This document shows positions 1-10,273 of a DNA stretch of 10,273 bases, piece after piece. Each line of letters opens with the position of its first letter. Position 1 is the first letter of the stretch. Below the pieces are notes generated by a model. That model was not told the DNA's origin and searched no databases. It saw only the letters and a list, made by a program, of their open reading frames with translations. A program made the translations under genes and the position numbers. This DNA comes from Candidatus Heimdallarchaeota archaeon (lineage in GTDB: Archaea; Asgardarchaeota; Heimdallarchaeia; Heimdallarchaeales; Kariarchaeaceae): positions 1 to 10,273 of the forward strand of contig WAKA01000209.1 in the NCBI GenBank assembly GCA_015523565.1, given 5' to 3'.

Positions 1-3000
1 CCTGAAAACGTTCTTCAAGATAAAGGTTGCGCCAGACCTGATGCCGTCCCATGCCTGTTGCATTGCATTTTTCATGGTCTGCATCACAGACCCCGCAAAG
101 CCGAAGATGTCGTTCACCACATCGGCAAGCGTGTCCGAGGCACTCCGTCCCAGTGTCTGCATGCCCGCCTTCCAGACTGCATTCAGTGCAGTGTTGGGGG
201 CGACAAATGACTTGTGCAGCCAGTCGGCGAAAACAAGGATGCCGACCTTGGCAACAGCAAGGTAGTTCATCGGCTTGGCGGGATCGTAGCCGGGATTGTC
301 AGGGGTGTTGAGATTCAGCTCCTGCTGCAGGCTCTGGTCCTTCAGCACAATTTTGGCAAGCAACTCCTTGCGCTGGTCAGTGCCGAACCAGTTGATCAGG
401 TTGCCGACAGCACTAAAGCCGTACTGGTCAAGCAACTGCCATGCCTTGTCCGCAATCTCTGTGCGTTCAAAGCCAAGAAACGTGTAGGTGAGGTGGGCAT
501 AGATCCAATTCTTGATCAGAACCCTGAAATCATCGAACTTCTTGACGATGGCTTCGAGGAACAGGTCCACGTCAAAGACCCTGTTCTCGGTCGGGTTGGT
601 CTGCGATGCCGTTTGCATGGCCTGCCTTGCGGATGGGGGCACCTGTGCCTCTTGGATCTCAAGCTTCAGGGTGGACGGGTTAAAGCCTGATCCACGAACT
701 ATGTTGAGGATGTTGGAACCACTCATTTGGGACCTCACAAAGATCTCTGCGCCTTTTGTATCTTTGGAATAATAACCTGCATCAACAGATGTGTCGGAAA
801 TGGAGAAACTGACAAATGCATCATATGAATTGGTGTTCAATTTGATTACATAGGAATTAATTGATGCTCCAAGTTTCAGGGTGAACTTATATTGATAAAT
901 TCCTTGCAGAGAATAATATGCATACGAATAGGGGATGGTGGTGTCATAGCTTGAATACATTGCAATATTGATGGCAGTGGTTGATGAGATGGTGAGGAAC
1001 ATGGTGGTCAGTTTTCTTGGCTTGAATGAAAGGCTGACCATATATCCTGTATTTTTGTTGAACTTGAAGTTGGTGTTGCTTGTTGAGACAACTTGGTAAT
1101 TATACTCATTTGCGTTGACACCGTTTATTGTGTCCCAATATTTTGTTCCATTTACCAGCTTGATTCCCGCGGCTCCTGGCAATGCTTCAGGTTGTGCATA
1201 GGTTTGGGCTGTGACGAATGTTGTTGGCAGTTTTCCGTTTTCTTGTGGAAGTTGTCCCATGGAAACTATCTTGTTGAGATAATATTTGCCGCCATATTCT
1301 GGTAGTTCTTCGTAAATGGGTTCCACAGGATTTCCGTTCTCGTCCCAACGGTACTTGACATAGGTGACAAGGCTTTTTGTGATCGGTTCGGCATTTGGCA
1401 ATGGCATGCCCGTATAGCCCGTGACAAATTTGTTTGTTGAACCGTCACCCATGAGGTATGCACGCGAGTAATATTTTTCGGTTGGGGTGAAACTGATTGC
1501 ATATCTTGAATCGCCCTTGTCATGCTCAAACTGCACATAGAAGAATTCAGTTGATCCAGGAGTTACAGAAATTGTGTAAGATGCATCAACTGATGTTTGG
1601 TAGGTGTTCAGGATATTGCCATATTGATTCATCCTGATGATTTTGATGGTCTGTCCATCGGTTTGGATATCAAGGTTTACGGGGAGTGAACTCAATGGTT
1701 TATTGTAATAGAAGTAGTACTTTCCATCATTCGGATTGTGATATGCATTGATTTCCGCCTTTCGATTGTTGGAGTATTGGAACAGTTGAGCCACCCATCT
1801 GTCAGTCCATTTGATGGAGGGAGCCATCAGGTTAACGCCATAATTTGATTGGAACTGGTCTGGGAAGCTTGGGATTGTTATTGTTGTTCCACCAAGGCTT
1901 CCACCATTATACGAGGTAATGGTTGTTGAACTAGTGCTGAAAATGTTCCCTACGAAAATGGAATCTTGGACGATATTGCATTGTTGTTGTGTGGGGTTGA
2001 TGTAACCACAGGTAAGGTAGTCATAAATATCGTCTATAAGTCCCAAAAGGTTGTTTGAATAGACTTGTGCGACAGGGGTTATGTCCGCTGTTGCGAGATA
2101 AGTTGTTCGGTCGAACTTTAAGGCGAAAGCCCCTTGAGTATAAGTTCCCCAAGCCGCAGATGGGTCGTACAATGCACTGCCAAGGTTTGCATAACCTGAA
2201 ATGCTGACATCGATTGCATAACCGTTCTGGTAATGCACTTCTGGTCTTGCAATCAGGTTTGCAGGCAGATTAATATTGTAGACTGTCTTGTTTGCATTGC
2301 CTTGTGACATTGAAATGACAAGTTTTTGTTGGGTAATTCCAGTTAGTGTCTGTATTGTCTTTATTGTGAAGGTAATGGTGTAGGAAGTATTAATGTTGTA
2401 TCCTTGGAATTCGGAAATTTGTACACCTGCCATGGAGTACCACACGTCATTGACCAATTTGACGCCGAATTTTGAACCTGATGTGGTTTGCATGTAGAAT
2501 TCTGCGGATTTTGGATTCCCGTTTTCACCATTGTAAATGTCAGTGTTCACAATGAAGGTAGGTTCATCTGATGGTTTGATCTCTTTTGAGACGACCATGT
2601 CATTTGGGATTCTTGGCATTAGGGAATAGAGATAAGTGATTTCACTTTGTCCTAGTGCGATATCATAAGTCTGAAGCTCATCCAAGCTTCCGTTCAGGTA
2701 TCTTCCTCCATATCCCTGTCCGAATTTTGTGATAGTCAAGGAATTGGGGAATGCAGAGGTGCTACCAACCTGCTTTCCGTTAATGTAGACGATAATTGAT
2801 GATTTGTCAAAGACAATGGTGGTCATGACCCATTTGTCCTTGAAATCTTTTTCAAATGTTTTTCCAAGGTCAATGGATCTATAATTGCCGCTATCATCCT
2901 GTAAAGTAAGTTTCATTGTTCCAGACAATTCCTTGAAGCTGATGACCTGATCCCAATAAGTATTTGGACCATGGGCTATTCCTGCCATTCTGTAATAGGT

Positions 3001-6000
3001 TCCATAATATTCAAGGTCTCTTATGTTGACCCAAAAGTTCAGGGATGTTCCCTTGACAAACTTGTAATTGACATCGATTGTTGATTTTTCAAAACTTGCG
3101 GCCATTCCGTCTATTCCTGAGCCATAACCTTTCAGGGTTGTGGTAGTTATTGTATGAGATGGGTTGACATTGTCGACTAGGTTATTTTCAAAGCTGACAG
3201 CAGAAGTAAGGTGTCTATTGCTGTACAGCCATTTAATCTCGTCAATGCCAATGCTTCTGTTGAACAGGGCGACATTTTCAATAGCTCCTGTAAAGGATGA
3301 TCCTCCCAACGTGATCTCTTGGAATGACAGTTGTGAGGAAGTTATCTGGCTTGAAGTTCTTTGGAGAATGTTGCTGTCTAAATAGACGAAATAATCAGAT
3401 CCGACCTTCTTGATAACCAAATGATGCCATTGGTTCAGGGAGAAGGCAGAAGCGTCGAACACAGTTGATTTTCCATTTTCGACAACTGTGATCGTATTGG
3501 CAGAATATGAAACCGATGCGGCATTTCCGAAGCTTACCAAGGTGCCAGTATTGGATTGTGGGTAAACCCAAAAAGCAACGGACATGCTTTTTGCGGGGGT
3601 CATGTAATTGGCAGAAATCCGTGGCACCAATGAGCTTGCTCCTGAAAAGAGATATGTTGTCTCTTCAGCGGCGTAGCTGTTGTCTTTTCCAGTAATTGAG
3701 ATTTTTTCGGCAACGTCATCGACTCTCCAATAACTTGCGGAGGACCAGTAGGTTGCATGCCTTATTGCCTCTACAGACAGGGATTTGATTGTTCTGCCAG
3801 TTATGGAGTAAGACAGTGTCTTTGAATAAACCCCTGAAGTCGAGACGGTTATCTGGCTTCCTGAATATGCGATGGAAACATAAAGAGTTCCTGAAGCGGG
3901 GAGAGAGCCAGCAGATGTGGAAAATGAATTGGAATTAAGTGAACCGTCGGCATTGTAGAAATACATCATGAAATATGATGTAGAGCTTGCCCATGCATCC
4001 CTTACTCCCACCAATGCAATGGGTTTGTTTGATGAATCATATATCCTGAAATACAGTGCCCCCATTTTGGGGAAATAATATGAAAGTTTCACAGAAATAG
4101 TTCTGGTTCCTTGAGCCAAAGTATTGGCCTTGAGTTCAGTTTTTTGCCAGCCCGATCCTCCAGATGACTGGACAGCTTCGAGTCGACTGTTCTGTTCTGC
4201 AAAATGGATTGTACTGCTTGTTTTTGCATATGTCCATGCGCTTGACATGCTGTTGTCATTGAAATTATCATAGAATCCCTGTTTAATTCCTTTTTCTGCA
4301 TAATTCTGTAATTTGAAATAGTCGGATGCAGGGGAGCCTGTATAGAATGTGAATTCCAATGCGACCTTTCCAGCAGTAAGACTGCTTGTTGATGCAGATT
4401 TTCTTTCAACATAATCCTTGCTGAAGATTGAAAGGGCAGTTTGTCCATTGGAATAGGCAATCTGGAATCTGATATTGTCCATACTGTCATATAAGGCAGG
4501 ACTTTGATAGCTTTGAACGACAGTTCCTTGGTTATTATAGAAGACCATCTTGAAGATGGGATTTGAATTGTCAAGTATCACAATTGCGGCAATTGGAGTC
4601 CCTGATGAACTTTTGAGCATGAATGTGAATTTCCCGTTGCCTTTCAACCGATATGCCATTGTTATTTCAAAATCAACACTTCCTTGAACAATGGTTCTTG
4701 CGATCCTGTCGGTATATGTTGAACTTCCACTTATTGCAGAACCTTTCAGTTCTCCTCCATTCTCATTCAACAGCAGGTAAGGGGAATTGGTTTCATACGT
4801 CCAACCTGAAAGCGATCCGTCATTGAAGGAATCATAGGCTTGAACTGCGGCATTTGATGCAGTGGCTGTATTTGTACCGAATATATCCATTCCTTTCATG
4901 AAATAACTGGTCATGAGTGGTAAATGCTCTGTTCCAATAGGCAGGAAATCCTCCATTCTTCCTGAACTGATGGATATTGTTCCTCTGGCAAATGTTGCCG
5001 CTTCTTGAATGCTGGATGTCAAGTAAATTGCATCAAAATATGTACCAGAAGAGGATGAATAGAAGGACATCTTGTTCATTACAAAAGAACTCTTCCCAGC
5101 AAACCTATACAGATCCACAACATAGAAATGCCATTTACCGTCAGTTTTGAAGACCAAACTGCTGCTTTCATGAATTGAAGGGGCAACAGTAATTGTCATG
5201 GCACTTCCAGTTGAAGATGCAGTACCTCCTATTTTTATTACAGCATTCGTTGTTCCAGATGGAATTTGGGCCGCAAATACCATGTATCTGAAATAATTGT
5301 CAATTGTATATGATGGTGTCGAGAAATATTCACCTGCAATTGTACTTGCTTTTATTGCAAATCTGCCGCTTGGAGCATCATTTGTCTGTATTGTTTGTGT
5401 GTTCCCATTTCCTTCAACTTTAAGGGTTGAAAGATCTTGGTCATCAAAAACAGGGGACAATGTCGGCACCTTAGCAAAAGTGTCTACAATTGGCATCATT
5501 TCAGCCCTATCAACAAGAATCTCCGCGGCTGATGAGCTCATGTATAATCTAGGTTTGATAATGTTGACAAAGCCTGTTCCCTCAAAAAAGACATTCATGG
5601 CTTGATCCTCTTGAGATGTCAAAGTGCCAAACCATGCGCCTGATTGGAATGTGAGTGTCAATGTATATGGTCTCCCGACATACAGATCAAAACTATCCGC
5701 CAAATTCAGGGTGGTTCCAGTTTTCGTATAAATACTGGCAGTGGTTACAGACCCAGTTGCACCATTGGATGAAATTTTGATCCCGAATTGAGGGGAATAC
5801 CCTTGGTAGGTTAAACTAGATGATTTATTTCCCAAGATAAGGATATCAAAATCTGTTGAAGGCAAATTGTTGTATTTGAACAGCAATGAAAGCTTGAATT
5901 CATTTTGCCTCCCAGATATTGCCTTAGAAATTTCTTCTATATATTTTCCATTCAAAACTAAGTATCCATTTGAAGTGGAAGTTGCAGTGCCAGTCCAATG

Positions 6001-7524
6001 ATTGCCATCAATGGAAGAAAATTCCTCTGTAAATCCCCTATAATTTCCCTTGGCAAAATAGAACCAAAGGTCGTCGTTTTGTGCATAAAATTCGTCCCAA
6101 GTTCCTTCCCTATGGTTTTCGAAAGAATATTGGGCGCCAGCTACAGGGAAAAACGAGGGGGGAACCACGTTCAGATGTTCATAGACAGAATAATCAGTAT
6201 AGACAGATGTTGATTGATCTGGTCCTGGAGAAACATTTATGTCATTGACATACAGTGTATCATCGCCATTGAAACCTTCCTTGTATTCACGTGGGAGATC
6301 CCTATTCTTGTTGATATTTAGGTTGAATCCCCTTATGGTCTTCATTGTTGCGTAACCCAATGTTTCGGTGCCATTGTAGGTCACCTCAACAGGTTCCTTT
6401 GTTATGACCCTTGGGAGCTTGTAAGTACCCGCGGCCAACAGGTTTTCCAATGAAAGCACAAATCTTGTGTTCAGGTATGTAAGTCCCCTATACCCTGTCA
6501 ATACCTGTCCAGGGTTCATAGACTCAAAAAATCCAAGAACGGAATCCCCACCGTATTCCTCATATTCATCAAGAATGAAACAGGCATGGATGTTAGTATT
6601 TACCAATTTGGTAATTTGCTTAACTCTAGTTTTTTGCAACGCATCCCTGAAGAATGTACCATCCATCACCCCGAGCTTTTTGGGGTTGTCATCCCTGTGA
6701 ACAAGAATTCCATGGCCATATACACTGTTCACCCCATGAGCAACAACAGTAAGGGAAATGGACTTAATTGCAGAATTCAGTTCAGCCTCTGCCAACAATG
6801 ACATGATATTAGAAGGTGTGGCATATTCATTGATCAAAAATGCATAATAATCAGAGGTTTCAATTGCCCAATTTTGCAATAGTGAGTAGACTTTTCTCCA
6901 AACCTTGTTTGTCTGCAATTTTTCTATGCTTCTGCTTTTGTAATCGGAAACAAAAACAACAAGGTTAAAATGTCCGCCTCTGCTTAATTTCCCTTCATAT
7001 CCATCAACCAGACTATCAATTACACTTTGGGCATTTAAGGTGTAATTCATTGCTTGACTGTCCAAAAATATCTTTCCTGATGAAGTGGAATTGATCGAAT
7101 GAACTTGGTAAGACAAAAGTCCTGGAACAAAAACCTCCTTGTATTTCAATTTCGTTTTTGGTTCCATTTCCTTGTATGGCTTTATTACTCTGGTTTCAAA
7201 CTCCTTGATTTCCAGAACACTCTTTCCCTCAAGAGAATAATTTTTGACAAATTCGGATGCATCCCTTGTCTTGATCTCATCAGAAGAATAAAATTTCTCA
7301 AAGGTTAGTTTATCTTTCACTTTTTCCCTAACCTTGTCCTTCTCTCCTGAAAGGACTTGCATCACTTGATCATATTTCTGAAAATCTTCGATCCTGATTT
7401 TTCTAATATTCTCAGGATATTCTGCATTCTGATCATTAGCTAAAACTTGACTAACGTCAGCACTTGTTATCATTAAGATTAATGATACAGCAATTATGGT
7501 TATTTTTAACTTTGAACTAGTCAT
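1..7524 (-). CDS. Giant secreted multidomain protein, at least 2508 aa, 3' end beyond the window. Order: signal peptide, clan CD-like cysteine protease, ConA/CBM-like domains, 2x LamG-like, beta-rich stalk, helical conserved domain. Candidate polymorphic toxin or adhesin.
   Basis: Manual translation of the minus frame from ATG 7524 shows no stop down to position 1. It starts MTSSKLKITIIAVSLILMITSADVSQVLANDQ and reads ...QQAWDGIRSGATFILKNVFR at the window edge. AAGGAGGG lies 11 nt upstream of the ATG. Recognisable LamG motifs are in frame. Confidence 0.95.
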   Translation of the reverse strand, partial: MTSSKLKITIIAVSLILMITSADVSQVLANDQNAEYPENIRKIRIEDFQKYDQVMQVLSGEKDKVREKVKDKLTFEKFYSSDEIKTRDASEFVKNYSLEGKSVLEIKEFETRVIKPYKEMEPKTKLKYKEVFVPGLLSYQVHSINSTSSGKIFLDSQAMNYTLNAQSVIDSLVDGYEGKLSRGGHFNLVVFVSDYKSRSIEKLQTNKVWRKVYSLLQNWAIETSDYYAFLINEYATPSNIMSLLAEAELNSAIKSISLTVVAHGVNSVYGHGILVHRDDNPKKLGVMDGTFFRDALQKTRVKQITKLVNTNIHACFILDEYEEYGGDSVLGFFESMNPGQVLTGYRGLTYLNTRFVLSLENLLAAGTYKLPRVITKEPVEVTYNGTETLGYATMKTIRGFNLNINKNRDLPREYKEGFNGDDTLYVNDINVSPGPDQSTSVYTDYSVYEHLNVVPPSFFPVAGAQYSFENHREGTWDEFYAQNDDLWFYFAKGNYRGFTEEFSSIDGNHWTGTATSTSNGYLVLNGKYIEEISKAISGRQNEFKLSLLFKYNNLPSTDFDILILGNKSSSLTYQGYSPQFGIKISSNGATGSVTTASIYTKTGTTLNLADSFDLYVGRPYTLTLTFQSGAWFGTLTSQEDQAMNVFFEGTGFVNIIKPRLYMSSSAAEILVDRAEMMPIVDTFAKVPTLSPVFDDQDLSTLKVEGNGNTQTIQTNDAPSGRFAIKASTIAGEYFSTPSYTIDNYFRYMVFAAQIPSGTTNAVIKIGGTASSTGSAMTITVAPSIHESSSLVFKTDGKWHFYVVDLYRFAGKSSFVMNKMSFYSSSSGTYFDAIYLTSSIQEAATFARGTISISSGRMEDFLPIGTEHLPLMTSYFMKGMDIFGTNTATASNAAVQAYDSFNDGSLSGWTYETNSPYLLLNENGGELKGSAISGSSTYTDRIARTIVQGSVDFEITMAYRLKGNGKFTFMLKSSSGTPIAAIVILDNSNPIFKMVFYNNQGTVVQSYQSPALYDSMDNIRFQIAYSNGQTALSIFSKDYVERKSASTSSLTAGKVALEFTFYTGSPASDYFKLQNYAEKGIKQGFYDNFNDNSMSSAWTYAKTSSTIHFAEQNSRLEAVQSSGGSGWQKTELKANTLAQGTRTISVKLSYYFPKMGALYFRIYDSSNKPIALVGVRDAWASSTSYFMMYFYNADGSLNSNSFSTSAGSLPASGTLYVSIAYSGSQITVSTSGVYSKTLSYSITGRTIKSLSVEAIRHATYWSSASYWRVDDVAEKISITGKDNSYAAEETTYLFSGASSLVPRISANYMTPAKSMSVAFWVYPQSNTGTLVSFGNAASVSYSANTITVVENGKSTVFDASAFSLNQWHHLVIKKVGSDYFVYLDSNILQRTSSQITSSQLSFQEITLGGSSFTGAIENVALFNRSIGIDEIKWLYSNRHLTSAVSFENNLVDNVNPSHTITTTTLKGYGSGIDGMAASFEKSTIDVNYKFVKGTSLNFWVNIRDLEYYGTYYRMAGIAHGPNTYWDQVISFKELSGTMKLTLQDDSGNYRSIDLGKTFEKDFKDKWVMTTIVFDKSSIIVYINGKQVGSTSAFPNSLTITKFGQGYGGRYLNGSLDELQTYDIALGQSEITYLYSLMPRIPNDMVVSKEIKPSDEPTFIVNTDIYNGENGNPKSAEFYMQTTSGSKFGVKLVNDVWYSMAGVQISEFQGYNINTSYTITFTIKTIQTLTGITQQKLVISMSQGNANKTVYNINLPANLIARPEVHYQNGYAIDVSISGYANLGSALYDPSAAWGTYTQGAFALKFDRTTYLATADITPVAQVYSNNLLGLIDDIYDYLTCGYINPTQQQCNIVQDSIFVGNIFSTSSTTITSYNGGSLGGTTITIPSFPDQFQSNYGVNLMAPSIKWTDRWVAQLFQYSNNRKAEINAYHNPNDGKYYFYYNKPLSSLPVNLDIQTDGQTIKIIRMNQYGNILNTYQTSVDASYTISVTPGSTEFFYVQFEHDKGDSRYAISFTPTEKYYSRAYLMGDGSTNKFVTGYTGMPLPNAEPITKSLVTYVKYRWDENGNPVEPIYEELPEYGGKYYLNKIVSMGQLPQENGKLPTTFVTAQTYAQPEALPGAAGIKLVNGTKYWDTINGVNANEYNYQVVSTSNTNFKFNKNTGYMVSLSFKPRKLTTMFLTISSTTAINIAMYSSYDTTIPYSYAYYSLQGIYQYKFTLKLGASINSYVIKLNTNSYDAFVSFSISDTSVDAGYYSKDTKGAEIFVRSQMSGSNILNIVRGSGFNPSTLKLEIQEAQVPPSARQAMQTASQTNPTENRVFDVDLFLEAIVKKFDDFRVLIKNWIYAHLTYTFLGFERTEIADKAWQLLDQYGFSAVGNLINWFGTDQRKELLAKIVLKDQSLQQELNLNTPDNPGYDPAKPMNYLAVAKVGILVFADWLHKSFVAPNTALNAVWKAGMQTLGRSASDTLADVVNDIFGFAGSVMQTMKNAMQQAWDGIRSGATFILKNVFR
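54..365 (-). repeat. Inverted repeat, left arm (inside the giant CDS, from codon 2387 onward)
   Basis: Its reverse complement aligns without gaps to 9962-10273 with 9 mismatches in 312 bp. Homology probably continues past the window edge. Confidence 0.98.
2625..3210 (-). other. LamG-like (Laminin_G_3 / ConA superfamily) domain 2
   Basis: SFENNLVD, GIDGMAASF, SLNFWVN, DKWVMTTIVFD, VYINGKQV and LNGSLDELQTYDIALGQSEITYLY. Confidence 0.85.
3220..3660 (-). other. LamG-like (Laminin_G_3 / ConA superfamily) domain 1
   Basis: SVAFWVYP, LNQWHHLVI, VYLD and FTGAIENVALFNRSIGIDEIKWLY match the family consensus. Confidence 0.85.
3705..4836 (-). repeat. Tandem pair of diverged ConA-like beta-sandwich domains, period about 188 aa
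   Basis: Unit 1 from 4836: YDSFNDGSLSGWTY...QG...SSGTPIA...MVFYNNQG...IAYSNGQ. Unit 2 from 4272: YDNFNDNSMSSAWTY...QG...SSNKPIA...MYFYNADG...IAYSGSQ. Confidence 0.7.
5010..5460 (-). other. Carbohydrate-binding-module-like jelly-roll domain
   Basis: Motifs DAPSGRFAIK, TDGKWHFYVVDL and terminal YFDAIYL, typical of CBM/galactose-binding-like beta sandwiches. Confidence 0.55.
6420..6975 (-). other. Clan CD (caspase/legumain/gingipain/CHAT-like) cysteine protease domain, predicted dyad His263/Cys315
   Basis: Motif order: FNLVVFVS strand, FLINEYATPSNIMSLL, ISLTVVAHG (His at 6736-6738), LVNTNIHACF (Cys at 6580-6582), QVLTGYRG. A hydrophobic strand plus HG followed about 50 aa later by a strand plus AC is the clan CD signature. 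Boundaries are approximate. Confidence 0.7.
7438..7524 (-). other. Sec-type signal peptide of the giant protein (aa 1 to about 29)
   Basis: Basic n-region (KLK), hydrophobic h-region (ITIIAVSLILMITSA) and small-residue cleavage candidates (TSA or VLA). No lipobox Cys and no twin-arginine motif. Confidence 0.75.
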
Positions 7525-7535
7525 GGTTATTTTTT

Positions 7536-7543
7536 CCCTCCTT
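7536..7543 (-). promoter_or_regulatory. Shine-Dalgarno site of the giant gene
   Basis: AAGGAGGG on the minus strand, 11 nt before ATG 7524. Confidence 0.75.
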
Positions 7544-7588
7544 ACACATCTACCTGGGGGGATAGCGAACCTTCAGTTTGTTGGGGTA

Positions 7589-7606
7589 TTAATAAATTTT
7601 TTTTTG
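7589..7606 (-). promoter_or_regulatory. Putative archaeal-type BRE/TATA promoter for the giant gene
   Basis: Minus strand reads CAAAAAAAAA-TTTATTAA-TACCCC: a purine-rich run directly before a TTTAWWWA box, about 65 nt upstream of the start codon. Confidence 0.5.
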
Positions 7607-7920
7607 TTTACATTACTTTTCCTTTAGGGATTTATTTTTGAGAAAAAAAGCAAAAAACCATTCGATCTGTTTTTTTCTCTACACAAATTATGTATCTTTT
7701 TAATTTCAAAAAAATCCAAAAGATGAATTTATTCACACTGTTGGAAAAATTTTTTGCAGTAATTCACCAGACATGCAGTTTTGCCAGATTAAGCATCCTT
7801 AAATAAAAATAGGGGAATCATCCTTCCTAAATAATTGAAATGGAGAAGAACACCTCTGCTCATTGAGATATCACCAGCAAATGTATATCATTACTTCCCT
7901 CCTTTCATTGATGTGGTACT

Positions 7921-8406
7921 ATGTCATATTACCTTTTGATGGCATATTGCTGGCATCATGGTATTCGTCAAGCAGGCAATTTAGTTTCAGTTGAAGAACA
8001 ACAGGTATTTGCATCGGACACAGCGTCATTCCTTAAGACTGTGGCAAAGTATCATCTCTATCATTCAATCTTTCTGACGGTAATGTTATTCGGTTGGATG
8101 TTTGTCATTCTGAAATGGAAAATTTTCACTAAAATTTCAGATACCGAATATTCTTGGGCGATTAAATTGATGGTAGGGATTATTACGGATTTTGCAGCAT
8201 TGTGTAGGATTCTGAAACTTTCCATACCGTTGATTAATGTATACCTGCGCTATCTTTTTATTGGCATTTTACTTTCCCTATTTGGATTGGGAAAGAGAAT
8301 GATGTTGATGTTTTTCCTGAACTTTTTTGGATGTACTTTGTTTGGAAACAGCAGTTTGTTCATCACGGGGCTTCCTTGGAGGTGGCGAAAACATGAACGA
8401 AACTAA
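7921..8406 (+). CDS. Hypothetical membrane protein (about 3-4 hydrophobic segments), possibly frameshifted or degraded
   Basis: 161-aa ORF with hydrophobic stretches (IFLTVMLFGWMFVIL; IPLINVYLRYLFIGILLSLFGL). No clear RBS, and protein-like alternative frames exist at both ends. Confidence 0.5.
   Translation: MSYYLLMAYCWHHGIRQAGNLVSVEEQQVFASDTASFLKTVAKYHLYHSIFLTVMLFGWMFVILKWKIFTKISDTEYSWAIKLMVGIITDFAALCRILKLSIPLINVYLRYLFIGILLSLFGLGKRMMLMFFLNFFGCTLFGNSSLFITGLPWRWRKHERN
8378..8384 (+). promoter_or_regulatory. Shine-Dalgarno site for the gene starting at 8393
   Basis: GGAGGTG ends 8 nt before ATG 8393. Confidence 0.8.
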
Positions 8407-9220
8407 GTTGGATGATGAATCTGTTGATTTCCCAAACCTGCTTCCAGATGTGCTTTTTTTGCCGTTTCTCATTTTCAGTATTTTGAGCATGGTTTTGTTC
8501 CCAATAATGGTGTATTGTGCAGAAAAGTTTGGTGTGAATGTGGCATATGGCATTATTGCGGCAATATTCCTCTATATTGTCGTAGTTGCTTCTGCCATAC
8601 GGAAAACTAAAAGGTACTTTTCCACAACAGATCTAAATGAGATTCAAACCCATTTCAACCATTTCTATTACATTTGGATGCCAGTAATTAGTGGTGCTAT
8701 CAGCATATTTTTTTATTTTGATAGTGTGGTTGATGCTTTTTTCTTTTATATATTGACTGGGGTGTATTTTTTATTTATTGCATCATACTTCATTTTTCTT
8801 GAGGAAAATCAGAAAGATTACAAAGGTATTCAAGATTACATACTGAAAATATTTATGCTATTGCAATTTATGATCCAAACTTGGTTTGCCTTTCTGCTGA
8901 TACATTTCTGGCAGAAACAGAAATGGGTTTTCCTTGAGTTATTGCTTGTATTTGGGGTGGGGATGCTTATTTTCTGGCTGAAACCTGGAAAACTTATTTT
9001 GAATCATACCCTTGCCCTTCGCCTTTTCCTTTACGCATTTGGCTTGCTTGTTGTTTGGATCAGTTGGGCTGATTTTGATTTGGCTCATCAGATTTTCAGC
9101 ACGGACTCCAACAATATTTTTATGAAATTAATGGTTGATTCCATTGTTTTTCTAATTTATATGGTGGCGTTGTCTCCGAAAATCTTACAGGAAATAATAA
9201 TTGAATATTACAATAAATAA
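8393..9220 (+). CDS. Hypothetical multi-pass membrane protein, 275 aa, about 8 TM helices; candidate immunity or accessory protein
   Basis: The ORF track gives 8327..9220, but the strong GGAGGTG RBS favours ATG 8393 (MNETKLDDESVDFP...). It has eight hydrophobic segments in hairpin-like pairs, is AT-rich, and shows no family motif I recognise. Confidence 0.85.
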   Translation: MNETKLDDESVDFPNLLPDVLFLPFLIFSILSMVLFPIMVYCAEKFGVNVAYGIIAAIFLYIVVVASAIRKTKRYFSTTDLNEIQTHFNHFYYIWMPVISGAISIFFYFDSVVDAFFFYILTGVYFLFIASYFIFLEENQKDYKGIQDYILKIFMLLQFMIQTWFAFLLIHFWQKQKWVFLELLLVFGVGMLIFWLKPGKLILNHTLALRLFLYAFGLLVVWISWADFDLAHQIFSTDSNNIFMKLMVDSIVFLIYMVALSPKILQEIIIEYYNK

Positions 9221-9222
9221 TT

Positions 9223-9961
9223 TAAATGGGTACTGGGGTGTTCTCTGAACCTTTTGGTTCATCTTTCATGTTTGGAACTGTATCTGTTTTATTATTCACA
9301 TGACTGCATGATGCAATAAACATAGTATCAAGGCGTTCATTGCAGAAACAGTCATTTCCACAATCTATCCGCTTGTATCAATGGTTTCGATGGGAATTTT
9401 AGTGGGGATAGTGTCAATGTTGGATATTATTGTACCATTCCTAACAGTCATATCATATTCCTCTTTGGTTATTTCCTTCGGTAATGAGAATATTGAAATT
9501 AGTGTTTAATCAAAAGGAAATAACCTTGCAGTAATTTTCGGCAATCAGCAAATTAAATTGATGGATTTGTTCTTCATTCCAGAAGTCGTTTTAGTAGAAA
9601 CGTCGTTTTCTTCAATGGAAGCCTTTTACAAAATCATGCTAGAACAATTTGTTGATTTTGTTTGTCACATATACAATTTTGATCAAAACTTCAAAACCTG
9701 AGATACAATCTCTTGTCATAATGACTTTGACAATGTATTTCCTTCGAATGGCAAAGATTGAATTGAATAAGCTATCAAATGGTGAAAAAAGGGACAGAAG
9801 CTGGAGGAATTGAAGATCTATTTGGTTACATGTCATAACACTTGGAAAGGAGTTCATACTTGGAACCGCAATTGCCTTACTATCAAAATTCCCATCGGGT
9901 GATGTTCTGGGTTGTTTAATCAAATCAATTTGTAAAATCGTAATGCCTGCATCAATCTTAT
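9223..9961. pseudogene. Possible degraded gene remnant, cut off by the repeat arm
   Basis: Long protein-like frames interrupted by isolated stops on both strands. The 111-aa minus ORF 9639-9974 takes its start from inside the repeat. No recognisable family. Confidence 0.25.
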
Positions 9962-10273
9962 AGTTGCTTGCCAAAATTGTGCTGAAGGATCAGAGCCTGC
10001 CGCAGGAGCTGAACCTCAACACCCCTGACAATCCCGGCTACGACCCCGCCAAGCCGATGAACTACCTTGCTGTTGCCAAGGTCGGCATCCTTGTCTTCGC
10101 CGACTGGCTGCACAAGTCATTTGTCGCTCCCAACACCGCACTGAATGCAGTCTGGAAGGCGGGCATGCAGACACTGGGACGGAGTGCCTCTGACACGCTT
10201 GCCGATGTGGTGAACGACATCTTCGGCTTTGCGGGGTCTGTGATGCAGACCATGAAAAACGCAATGCAACAGG
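9962..10273 (+). repeat. Inverted repeat, right arm
   Basis: Mismatches against the left arm are at 9990, 10001, 10014, 10044, 10095, 10128, 10137, 10191 and 10260. The match runs to the last base of the window. Confidence 0.98.
9964..10273 (+). pseudogene. Headless (orphan or silent) cassette paralogous to the 3' region of the giant gene; frame open to the window end
   Basis: Reads LLAKIVLKDQSLPQELNLNTPDNPGYDPAKPMNYLAVAKVGILVFADWLHKSFVAPNTALNAVWKAGMQTLGRSASDTLADVVNDIFGFAGSVMQTMKNAMQQ, identical to the giant protein except one Q to P. It is preceded by in-frame TAG (9961-9963) where the full gene has GAG. No RBS is evident before TTG 9964 or ATG 10057. Confidence 0.8.

Follow-up and report, generated by a model that had tools for sequence, protein, structure and literature searches.

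Does a 9.6-kb segment of a Heimdallarchaeota genome, carrying a presumed promoter and most of a giant gene between inverted coding arms, flip to give the encoded protein another C-terminus? The window, the whole stretch of DNA analysed here, is the entire contig C209 (10,273 bp) of MAG G000 (3.57 Mb in 233 contigs, 38.6% GC, about 90% complete), and both of its ends are therefore assembly breaks inside the inverted repeat. The runs that contain it are hydrothermal-vent metagenomes, all from one 2020 study; overlapping Logan contigs from four runs of one study, X1, X2 and X4 among them, tile most of the window and reveal strain variants in the samples. The features of the window are collected in Table 1.

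Table 1. Features of the window, with the evidence for each.
Feature	Position	Strand	Basis
Giant exported protein gene, 2,508 aa in window, 3' end open	1..7524	-	ORF; homologues of 2,661 and 1,988 aa
Signal peptide or anchor, one hydrophobic stretch, aa 6-24	7438..7524	-	Hydropathy scan; probable cleavage
Clan CD (caspase/CHAT/legumain-fold) peptidase-like domain, aa ~180-375, His263-Gly, Cys315	6400..6987	-	Alignment, model, Foldseek, VIA
LamG/ConA-like lectin domain, aa 1491-1629	2638..3054	-	PF13385 E 4.6e-19, 2 stretches
Conserved helical recombination module, aa 2284-2508, GC3 0.73 vs 0.40 upstream	1..675	-	GC3, comparison
Module start; 100% identical headless copy begins contig C121	564..674	-	BLASTN; loose end at 674 in run X1
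Left arm of inverted repeat	54..365 (to 39 vs C110)	-	Repeat search, C110 comparison
AWDGI junction motif, aa 2491-2495, tails diverge after it	40..54	-	Analogue of VENN/DPxGL
AT-rich intergenic region, presumed giant-gene promoter, GGAGG 5' of ATG	7525..7850		Composition
Hydrophobic ORF or remnant (7921-8406, 161 aa), related to partner stretches of C162, C110, C16	7853..8406	+	Sequence comparison
275-aa membrane protein, ~7 hydrophobic segments, immunity-like partner gene without tail	8393..9220	+	Paralogues in C162, C189
Decayed spare tail cassette, internal stop, begins at IKA motif	9327..9602	+	HMM E 1.9e-8, 1.3e-10
Right arm, 5' end of headless 437-aa spare cassette	9962..10273	+	C110 overlap; L046 contiguity

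Geometry of the inverted arms

The two arms are 312 nt long, 97% complementary and separated by a spacer of 9,596 nt. Their match (BLASTN E 2e-147 against the 3.57-Mb genome) is far beyond chance, and eight of the nine mismatches fall at the third codon position. The right end of the window overlaps contig C110 exactly over 151 bp, and this join is contiguous in L046 (GCA_027071915.1), a second MAG in which window positions 8250-10273 run on into the C110 sequence. With that sequence added, the arms reach window position 39, with 318 of 327 bp identical, and diverge just 3' of the AWDGI motif.

As the earlier note had described, the left arm lies in frame inside the giant ORF, which runs from 7524 to 1 and is open at the window edge after 2,508 aa, with 7,159 nt (2,386 codons plus 1 nt) of the gene upstream of the arm. 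The frame of the right arm is open and headless, begins at 9964 and points outward. Past the edge this frame remains open, giving 437 aa to its stop, so that an inversion by crossover in the arms would fuse the two in frame into a protein predicted at 2,824 aa. The tails behind the two arms differ, and each has its own downstream gene. Up to this point the expectations of the note were borne out. The repeat exists in many copies, not two: BLASTN against the genome reveals shorter pieces of the module at the starts of C110, C16, C162, C189 and C121.

A giant precursor with a predicted peptidase domain

Judging from its 3' end, the giant protein would reach about 2,820 aa if its tail is of the class found on C189: the last 37 bp of the gene in the window match an orphan on that contig, and this tail class differs from that of the right arm. 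The gene's own tail and partner are absent from the assembly. Full-length homologues (2,661 and 1,988 aa) align along nearly the whole of the giant protein, end in hydrophobic tails of their own and are each followed by a membrane-protein gene. A Pfam search of the window ORFs found LamG only, with a second stretch near aa 1351-1417. A promoter scan of the intergenic region upstream of the gene gave matches at chance level only.

Near the N-terminus, a structural model of the region around aa 180-375 (pLDDT 75) points to a clan CD peptidase fold. Foldseek places caspases at the top (probability 0.96-1.0, E about 2e-3), while VIA returns the SAVED-CHAT structure 8tl0 first (Z 11.4, rmsd 3.5, 158 aligned residues), followed by DdvA, legumain and caspases; the atlas lead is DUF4347. 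Every aligned sequence has His263-Gly, and all but the broken G002 copy retain Cys315. With these conserved His and Cys residues, the domain is a predicted peptidase in an N-terminal position. Its profile is not restricted to this family, also matching eight genomes from four other families among the 400 genomes of the phylum that were searched.

The G002 copy, on contig C313 (L032), is broken into several frames, and Ser replaces the conserved Cys. A second exported protein of at least 961 aa, encoded in G000 itself (L050:70-2952, contig C196), carries a distant copy of the caspase-fold domain; related proteins of about 1,480 aa occur in family f11.

Spare tails and their partner genes

A junction profile search identified at least 11 spare tails in G000 besides that of the giant gene, all on short contigs, and 15-20 matches in each of the relatives G001, G003 and G007. 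By taxonomy, the tail profile occurs in 6 of the 11 other genomes of the same family and in none of the 71 other genomes of the class. These tallies and the names of the homologues, recorded as Candidatus Heimdallarchaeota or Kariarchaeaceae archaeon, place the MAG in Asgard archaea, probably in Kariarchaeaceae; a 16S search of the MAG gave no match. The relatives carry the system mostly as one-strand arrays. In G003, an assembly of 10 contigs, a single 271-kb contig holds a one-strand array of about 40 kb and, 36 kb away, a smaller array on the opposite strand.

The 5' ends of the spares are staggered, at module offsets of 151, 460, 703, 740 and 788 nt, and have no common flank. No short fixed crossover site is found at the cassette boundaries, where the 5' junctions are staggered and the flanks unrelated; the only widely shared junction stretch is coding sequence for IKAAGQF (about 16-25 bp). 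The homology in the right arm is the longest that is fully seen among the spares.

Most tail genes have a partner gene downstream, at -11 to +19 nt. In a comparison of 253 pairs, tail class and partner class matched together in 9, the tail class alone in 2 and the partner class alone in none, a figure inflated by linked duplicates. The variable tails have about 330 aa and contain several membrane helices; those of different classes are unrelated by BLAST, and all are built on one common scaffold rather than being unrelated enzymes. The partners, of 150-400 aa, are usually multi-pass membrane proteins, and one is a soluble LRR protein. This one belongs to the right arm: the 437-aa frame that begins with the arm has about seven hydrophobic segments, and its stop is overlapped by a 304-aa gene (L046:3025-3939) that matches Pfam LRR_14. 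Many cassettes are frameshifted; two MAGs have this one undamaged, together with its LRR gene.

The model of a tail (pLDDT 69, pTM 0.53) combines one long helix with a sheet of five strands and a membrane bundle of helices. Foldseek gave no match to it at E<=0.001, and the best VIA hit (Z 8.8) is to generic helical bundles, which does not demonstrate a new fold. Pfam searches of 36 tail sequences and eight array genes found nothing in common and one LRR, and an atlas search with the tail gave no usable match; across Pfam, Foldseek and VIA, no toxin family or fold is recognised in the tail. A complex prediction for the C189 tail with its partner scored 0.01, a value uninformative either way.

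The first cassette of L004 (G003 C1:55481-57334) is a headless 617-aa frame adjoining an Rpn-like gene. On C162 of G000, a 311-aa frame in the array (L058:2307-3242), with no Pfam match, ends in a stretch that resembles the C-terminus of a partner from G001 (L034). In three loci (L048:18725-19606, L089:8141-8695 and L090:11841-12689), a tail/partner pair is followed by a convergent tyrosine integrase gene, with toxin-antitoxin or IS genes nearby, so that the tail/partner system may travel on an integrative element. Two spare cassettes of L090 (8133-11917) stand back to back, with 95-nt arms of 77% identity and a 109-nt tandem duplication; the inverted repeat that encloses them (73 nt, 92%) overlaps the 3' end of the integrase gene.

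The right arm belongs to an array

The plus strand between the promoter region and the right arm is itself part of a cassette array. By its similarity to partner stretches elsewhere, the hydrophobic ORF at its left end marks the start of a plus-strand array. The 275-aa membrane protein that comes next has no Pfam match. A decayed cassette lies upstream of the right arm, which is thus internal to the cassette array. As its neighbours indicate, the right arm is not a dedicated switch arm. It is an internal member of a plus-strand array that stands back to back with the promoter, and one of at least 11 spares.

A GC3 peak in the recombination module

The third-position GC content of codons 2284-2503 of the giant gene (0.73) exceeds that of all 2,704 windows of the genome (mean 0.37). 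The step at about codon 2284 coincides with the start of the identical C121 copy. The module has a GC3 of 0.62-0.85 in relatives with arrays, is intermediate in L049 (0.51), and shows at most a slight rise in L048, L089 and G011. GC-biased gene conversion between copies would produce such a peak, and its height, its step at the C121 junction and its recurrence in array-bearing relatives fit repeated recombination; import from a GC-richer donor could be an alternative origin.

The C121 copy (L014:1-111), at 100% identity to window 564-674, lies directly behind an MFS gene, and the stretch common to both has a depth of 48 against 33 in run X1. In run X2, a contig of depth 10 changes the Trp codon of AWDGI to TAG at window position 50, with the start of yet another tail behind it, which makes it one more decayed or strain-specific cassette.

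A proposed model for tail exchange

We propose, with a probability of about 0.68, that the locus is the expression site of an Asgard polymorphic C-terminal cassette system, in which tails are swapped by homologous recombination and inversion is occasional. The giant protein would be exported, and its stalk, which bears LamG, would reach a neighbouring cell. The peptidase would then release the C-terminal part, and the tail would damage the target membrane, or signal in it, while the partner would protect the producing cell. Tails would be exchanged by RadA-type homologous recombination within the conserved module. Spares in direct orientation could be loaded through deletion or conversion, and those of the opposite array through inversion. 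Because the right-arm cassette is inverted and has 327 bp in common with the giant gene, a crossover there would flip the 9.6 kb, loading its tail with no loss of DNA. We read inversion as an occasional route that stems from a past rearrangement and not as a programmed switch.

For the function of the tails, a toxin role is somewhat favoured, kin recognition is possible though doubtful, and any other role is unlikely. Several points speak against the proposed reading. The tail belongs to no recognised toxin family or fold, and the tails share one scaffold; the partners are large, one of them a soluble LRR protein; and the assembly lacks the tail and partner of the giant gene itself. In addition, some 2,000 residues separate the N-terminal peptidase domain from the tail, whereas the usual releasing peptidases lie just upstream of the toxin (PMC3482391).

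Orientation of the inner segment and alternative explanations

The earlier note had joined two proposals, a polymorphic C-terminal cassette system and a reversible two-state switch. Polymorphic tails with partners are indeed present, but a dedicated switch is not supported: the arms differ at nine sites, at least 11 spares exist, and other assemblies of the same species show no inverted state and in no case a giant gene fused to the C110 tail. The note was right that no recombinase is in view: neither the window nor the examined cassette contigs contain one; on other contigs of this fragmented assembly, PF00589 occurs on C126 and C203 and PF00239 on C52. The Logan contigs of the four runs contain no joints or strand switches, a crossover within the 312-bp arms being invisible to contigs. 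An opposite array orientation recurs in G003 and L090.

Among the alternatives, the one that survives best holds that the 327-bp arms let the 9.6-kb segment invert frequently, leaving a population with two orientations and two tails. The promoter and 2,386 codons would then move reversibly between opposite arrays. A tail for toxicity or kin recognition would thereby undergo phase variation with no recombinase, and all partner genes would be retained. We consider this unlikely. The geometry and frame work, as the 2,824-aa fusion illustrates, the tails behind the two arms are unrelated, and the right arm combines the longest fully seen spare homology with an intact frame and differences that are third-position in eight of nine cases. 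Against frequent flipping stand the nine fixed differences between the arms and a layout that is not conserved among the relatives seen: their fetched DNA contains no inverted arms around the giant gene, several of them being too fragmented to tell.

Two observations on exchange at the arm can be read in more than one way. In L047, an independent ENA assembly that covers window 620-10273 at 99.9%, the right arm continues into a third tail, and the first divergence falls on the exact base where C209 ends. Outside the arm L047 carries the seven SNPs of X1, and inside it an allele absent from X1's own contig, a pattern suggesting a collapsed and possibly misjoined repeat. The third tail is thus one hint of exchange and may be a misjoin; the inner segment has the same orientation relative to the arm junctions in L047 as in the window. 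Single contigs of runs X2 and X4 mix left- and right-arm alleles. We do not take these mosaics as proof of recombination, as the third copy on C121 together with consensus building explains them equally well.

Still less probable is that an array fragment was inverted or inserted once beside the promoter and is now a decaying by-product, with no further exchange at the arm. The cassette just upstream of the arm has decayed, and frameshifts are present in many cassettes. Decay is seen in relatives as well: G003 (93% complete) keeps its long arrays, and the N-terminal part of the giant protein found no counterpart in it; G002 has a giant gene split into several frames; and in L090 divergent cassettes stand with no giant gene between them. 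This explanation conflicts with the intact right-arm cassette and LRR partner of two MAGs, with arm differences that are almost all synonymous, and with the 97% identity over 327 bp, which is still a good recombination substrate.

Very improbable, finally, is an artefact of assembly or binning, in which a misjoin produced the arms or several strains contributed the cassettes: both contig ends do lie inside a repeat of a MAG of 233 contigs, from samples with strain variants, but L047 and L046 span the parts of the window given above, Logan contigs tile most of it and the G003 array sits on one contig, which largely refutes this reading for the inner segment.

Comparison with known systems

We return to our preferred reading, a cassette system with homologous tail exchange. 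In the literature we found no such system in Asgard archaea, a mention in Makarova et al. 2019 (mBio) being possible, and a related-locus search and a metagenome pattern scan gave no matches. Asgard archaea are the closest prokaryotic relatives of eukaryotes, and the locus supplies a nearly complete caspase-fold precursor, along with a dozen tail/partner pairs as material for tests of killing or self-recognition. The GC3 peak that ends at the edge of the duplicated module may preserve a legible record of gene conversion, repeated over time, in an uncultured archaeon.

Among inverting systems, shufflons such as R64 pilV/Rci exchange C-termini by inversion. Unlike them, the present locus has no linked recombinase and no fixed short crossover site, and its cassettes stand mostly in direct arrays. 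In Campylobacter fetus, RecA-dependent inversion at sap changes the expressed variant with no loss of DNA; the segment that flips carries a promoter and serves complete S-layer genes in turn, and this switching has been demonstrated. The Asgard locus resembles sap in its inverted copies with long conserved homology, and its long inverted arms giving an in-frame product are those of a homology-driven inversion. It differs in that a flip would join 2,386 codons to headless tails with partners, and in that no flip has been seen. The earlier note had not recognised the arrangement with this domain architecture, but the layout has a precedent: reference titles in PMC1950947 place DNA inversion within the conserved 5' regions of sap homologues.

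Among archaeal loci, the VARTIG modules of Thermococcales comprise Ig domains and a large surface protein with a hypervariable C-terminus (PMC8416519). They share with our locus an archaeal host, variable downstream genes and a PTS-like layout, and differ from its caspase fold, LamG, membrane-helix tails and long spare arrays. The aloposons of Heimdallarchaeum carry tandem genes for proteins of 3,000-6,000 aa, integrate at tRNA and include a cluster with a ParA-like gene (Wu et al. 2022, PMC8813620). Giant proteins in Heimdallarchaeia are common to both; the window shows a single giant gene with cassette genes, and the tail family was found only in family f1 among 83 genomes of the class.

The closest likeness is to the CdiA-CT/CdiI and Rhs-CT/RhsI systems, with a constant N-terminus for trafficking, a junction motif and a variable C-terminal module. 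The order of C-terminal module and then partner gene, the headless spares and a caspase-like domain in the precursor, here a predicted peptidase, are likewise shared. CDI orphans too are headless, and the homology upstream of their variable part differs in extent (Poole et al. 2011, PMC3150448); processing domains of the caspase type are well known from polymorphic toxins (Zhang et al. 2012, PMC3482391), systems that are reported to be rare in archaea (PMC3482391). At the present locus we find a large exported precursor (signal-like N-terminus, LamG, homologues aligning near full length), a variable C-terminal module behind AWDGI, and headless orphans that have partner genes downstream (G000 has at least 11, and G001, G003 and G007 have arrays).

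The locus thus appears to work like a polymorphic toxin locus, with putative toxin and immunity roles. Unlike CDI and Rhs systems, it has an Asgard host and contains no RHS, haemagglutinin or known toxin or immunity domains; its tails form one membrane-helix family, its partners are mostly multi-pass membrane proteins, its peptidase is N-terminal and some of its arrays are opposite. The loading of a CDI orphan proceeds by a deletion that removes the old immunity gene (PMC3150448); if inversion is live at the Asgard locus, the old partner gene would instead be kept.
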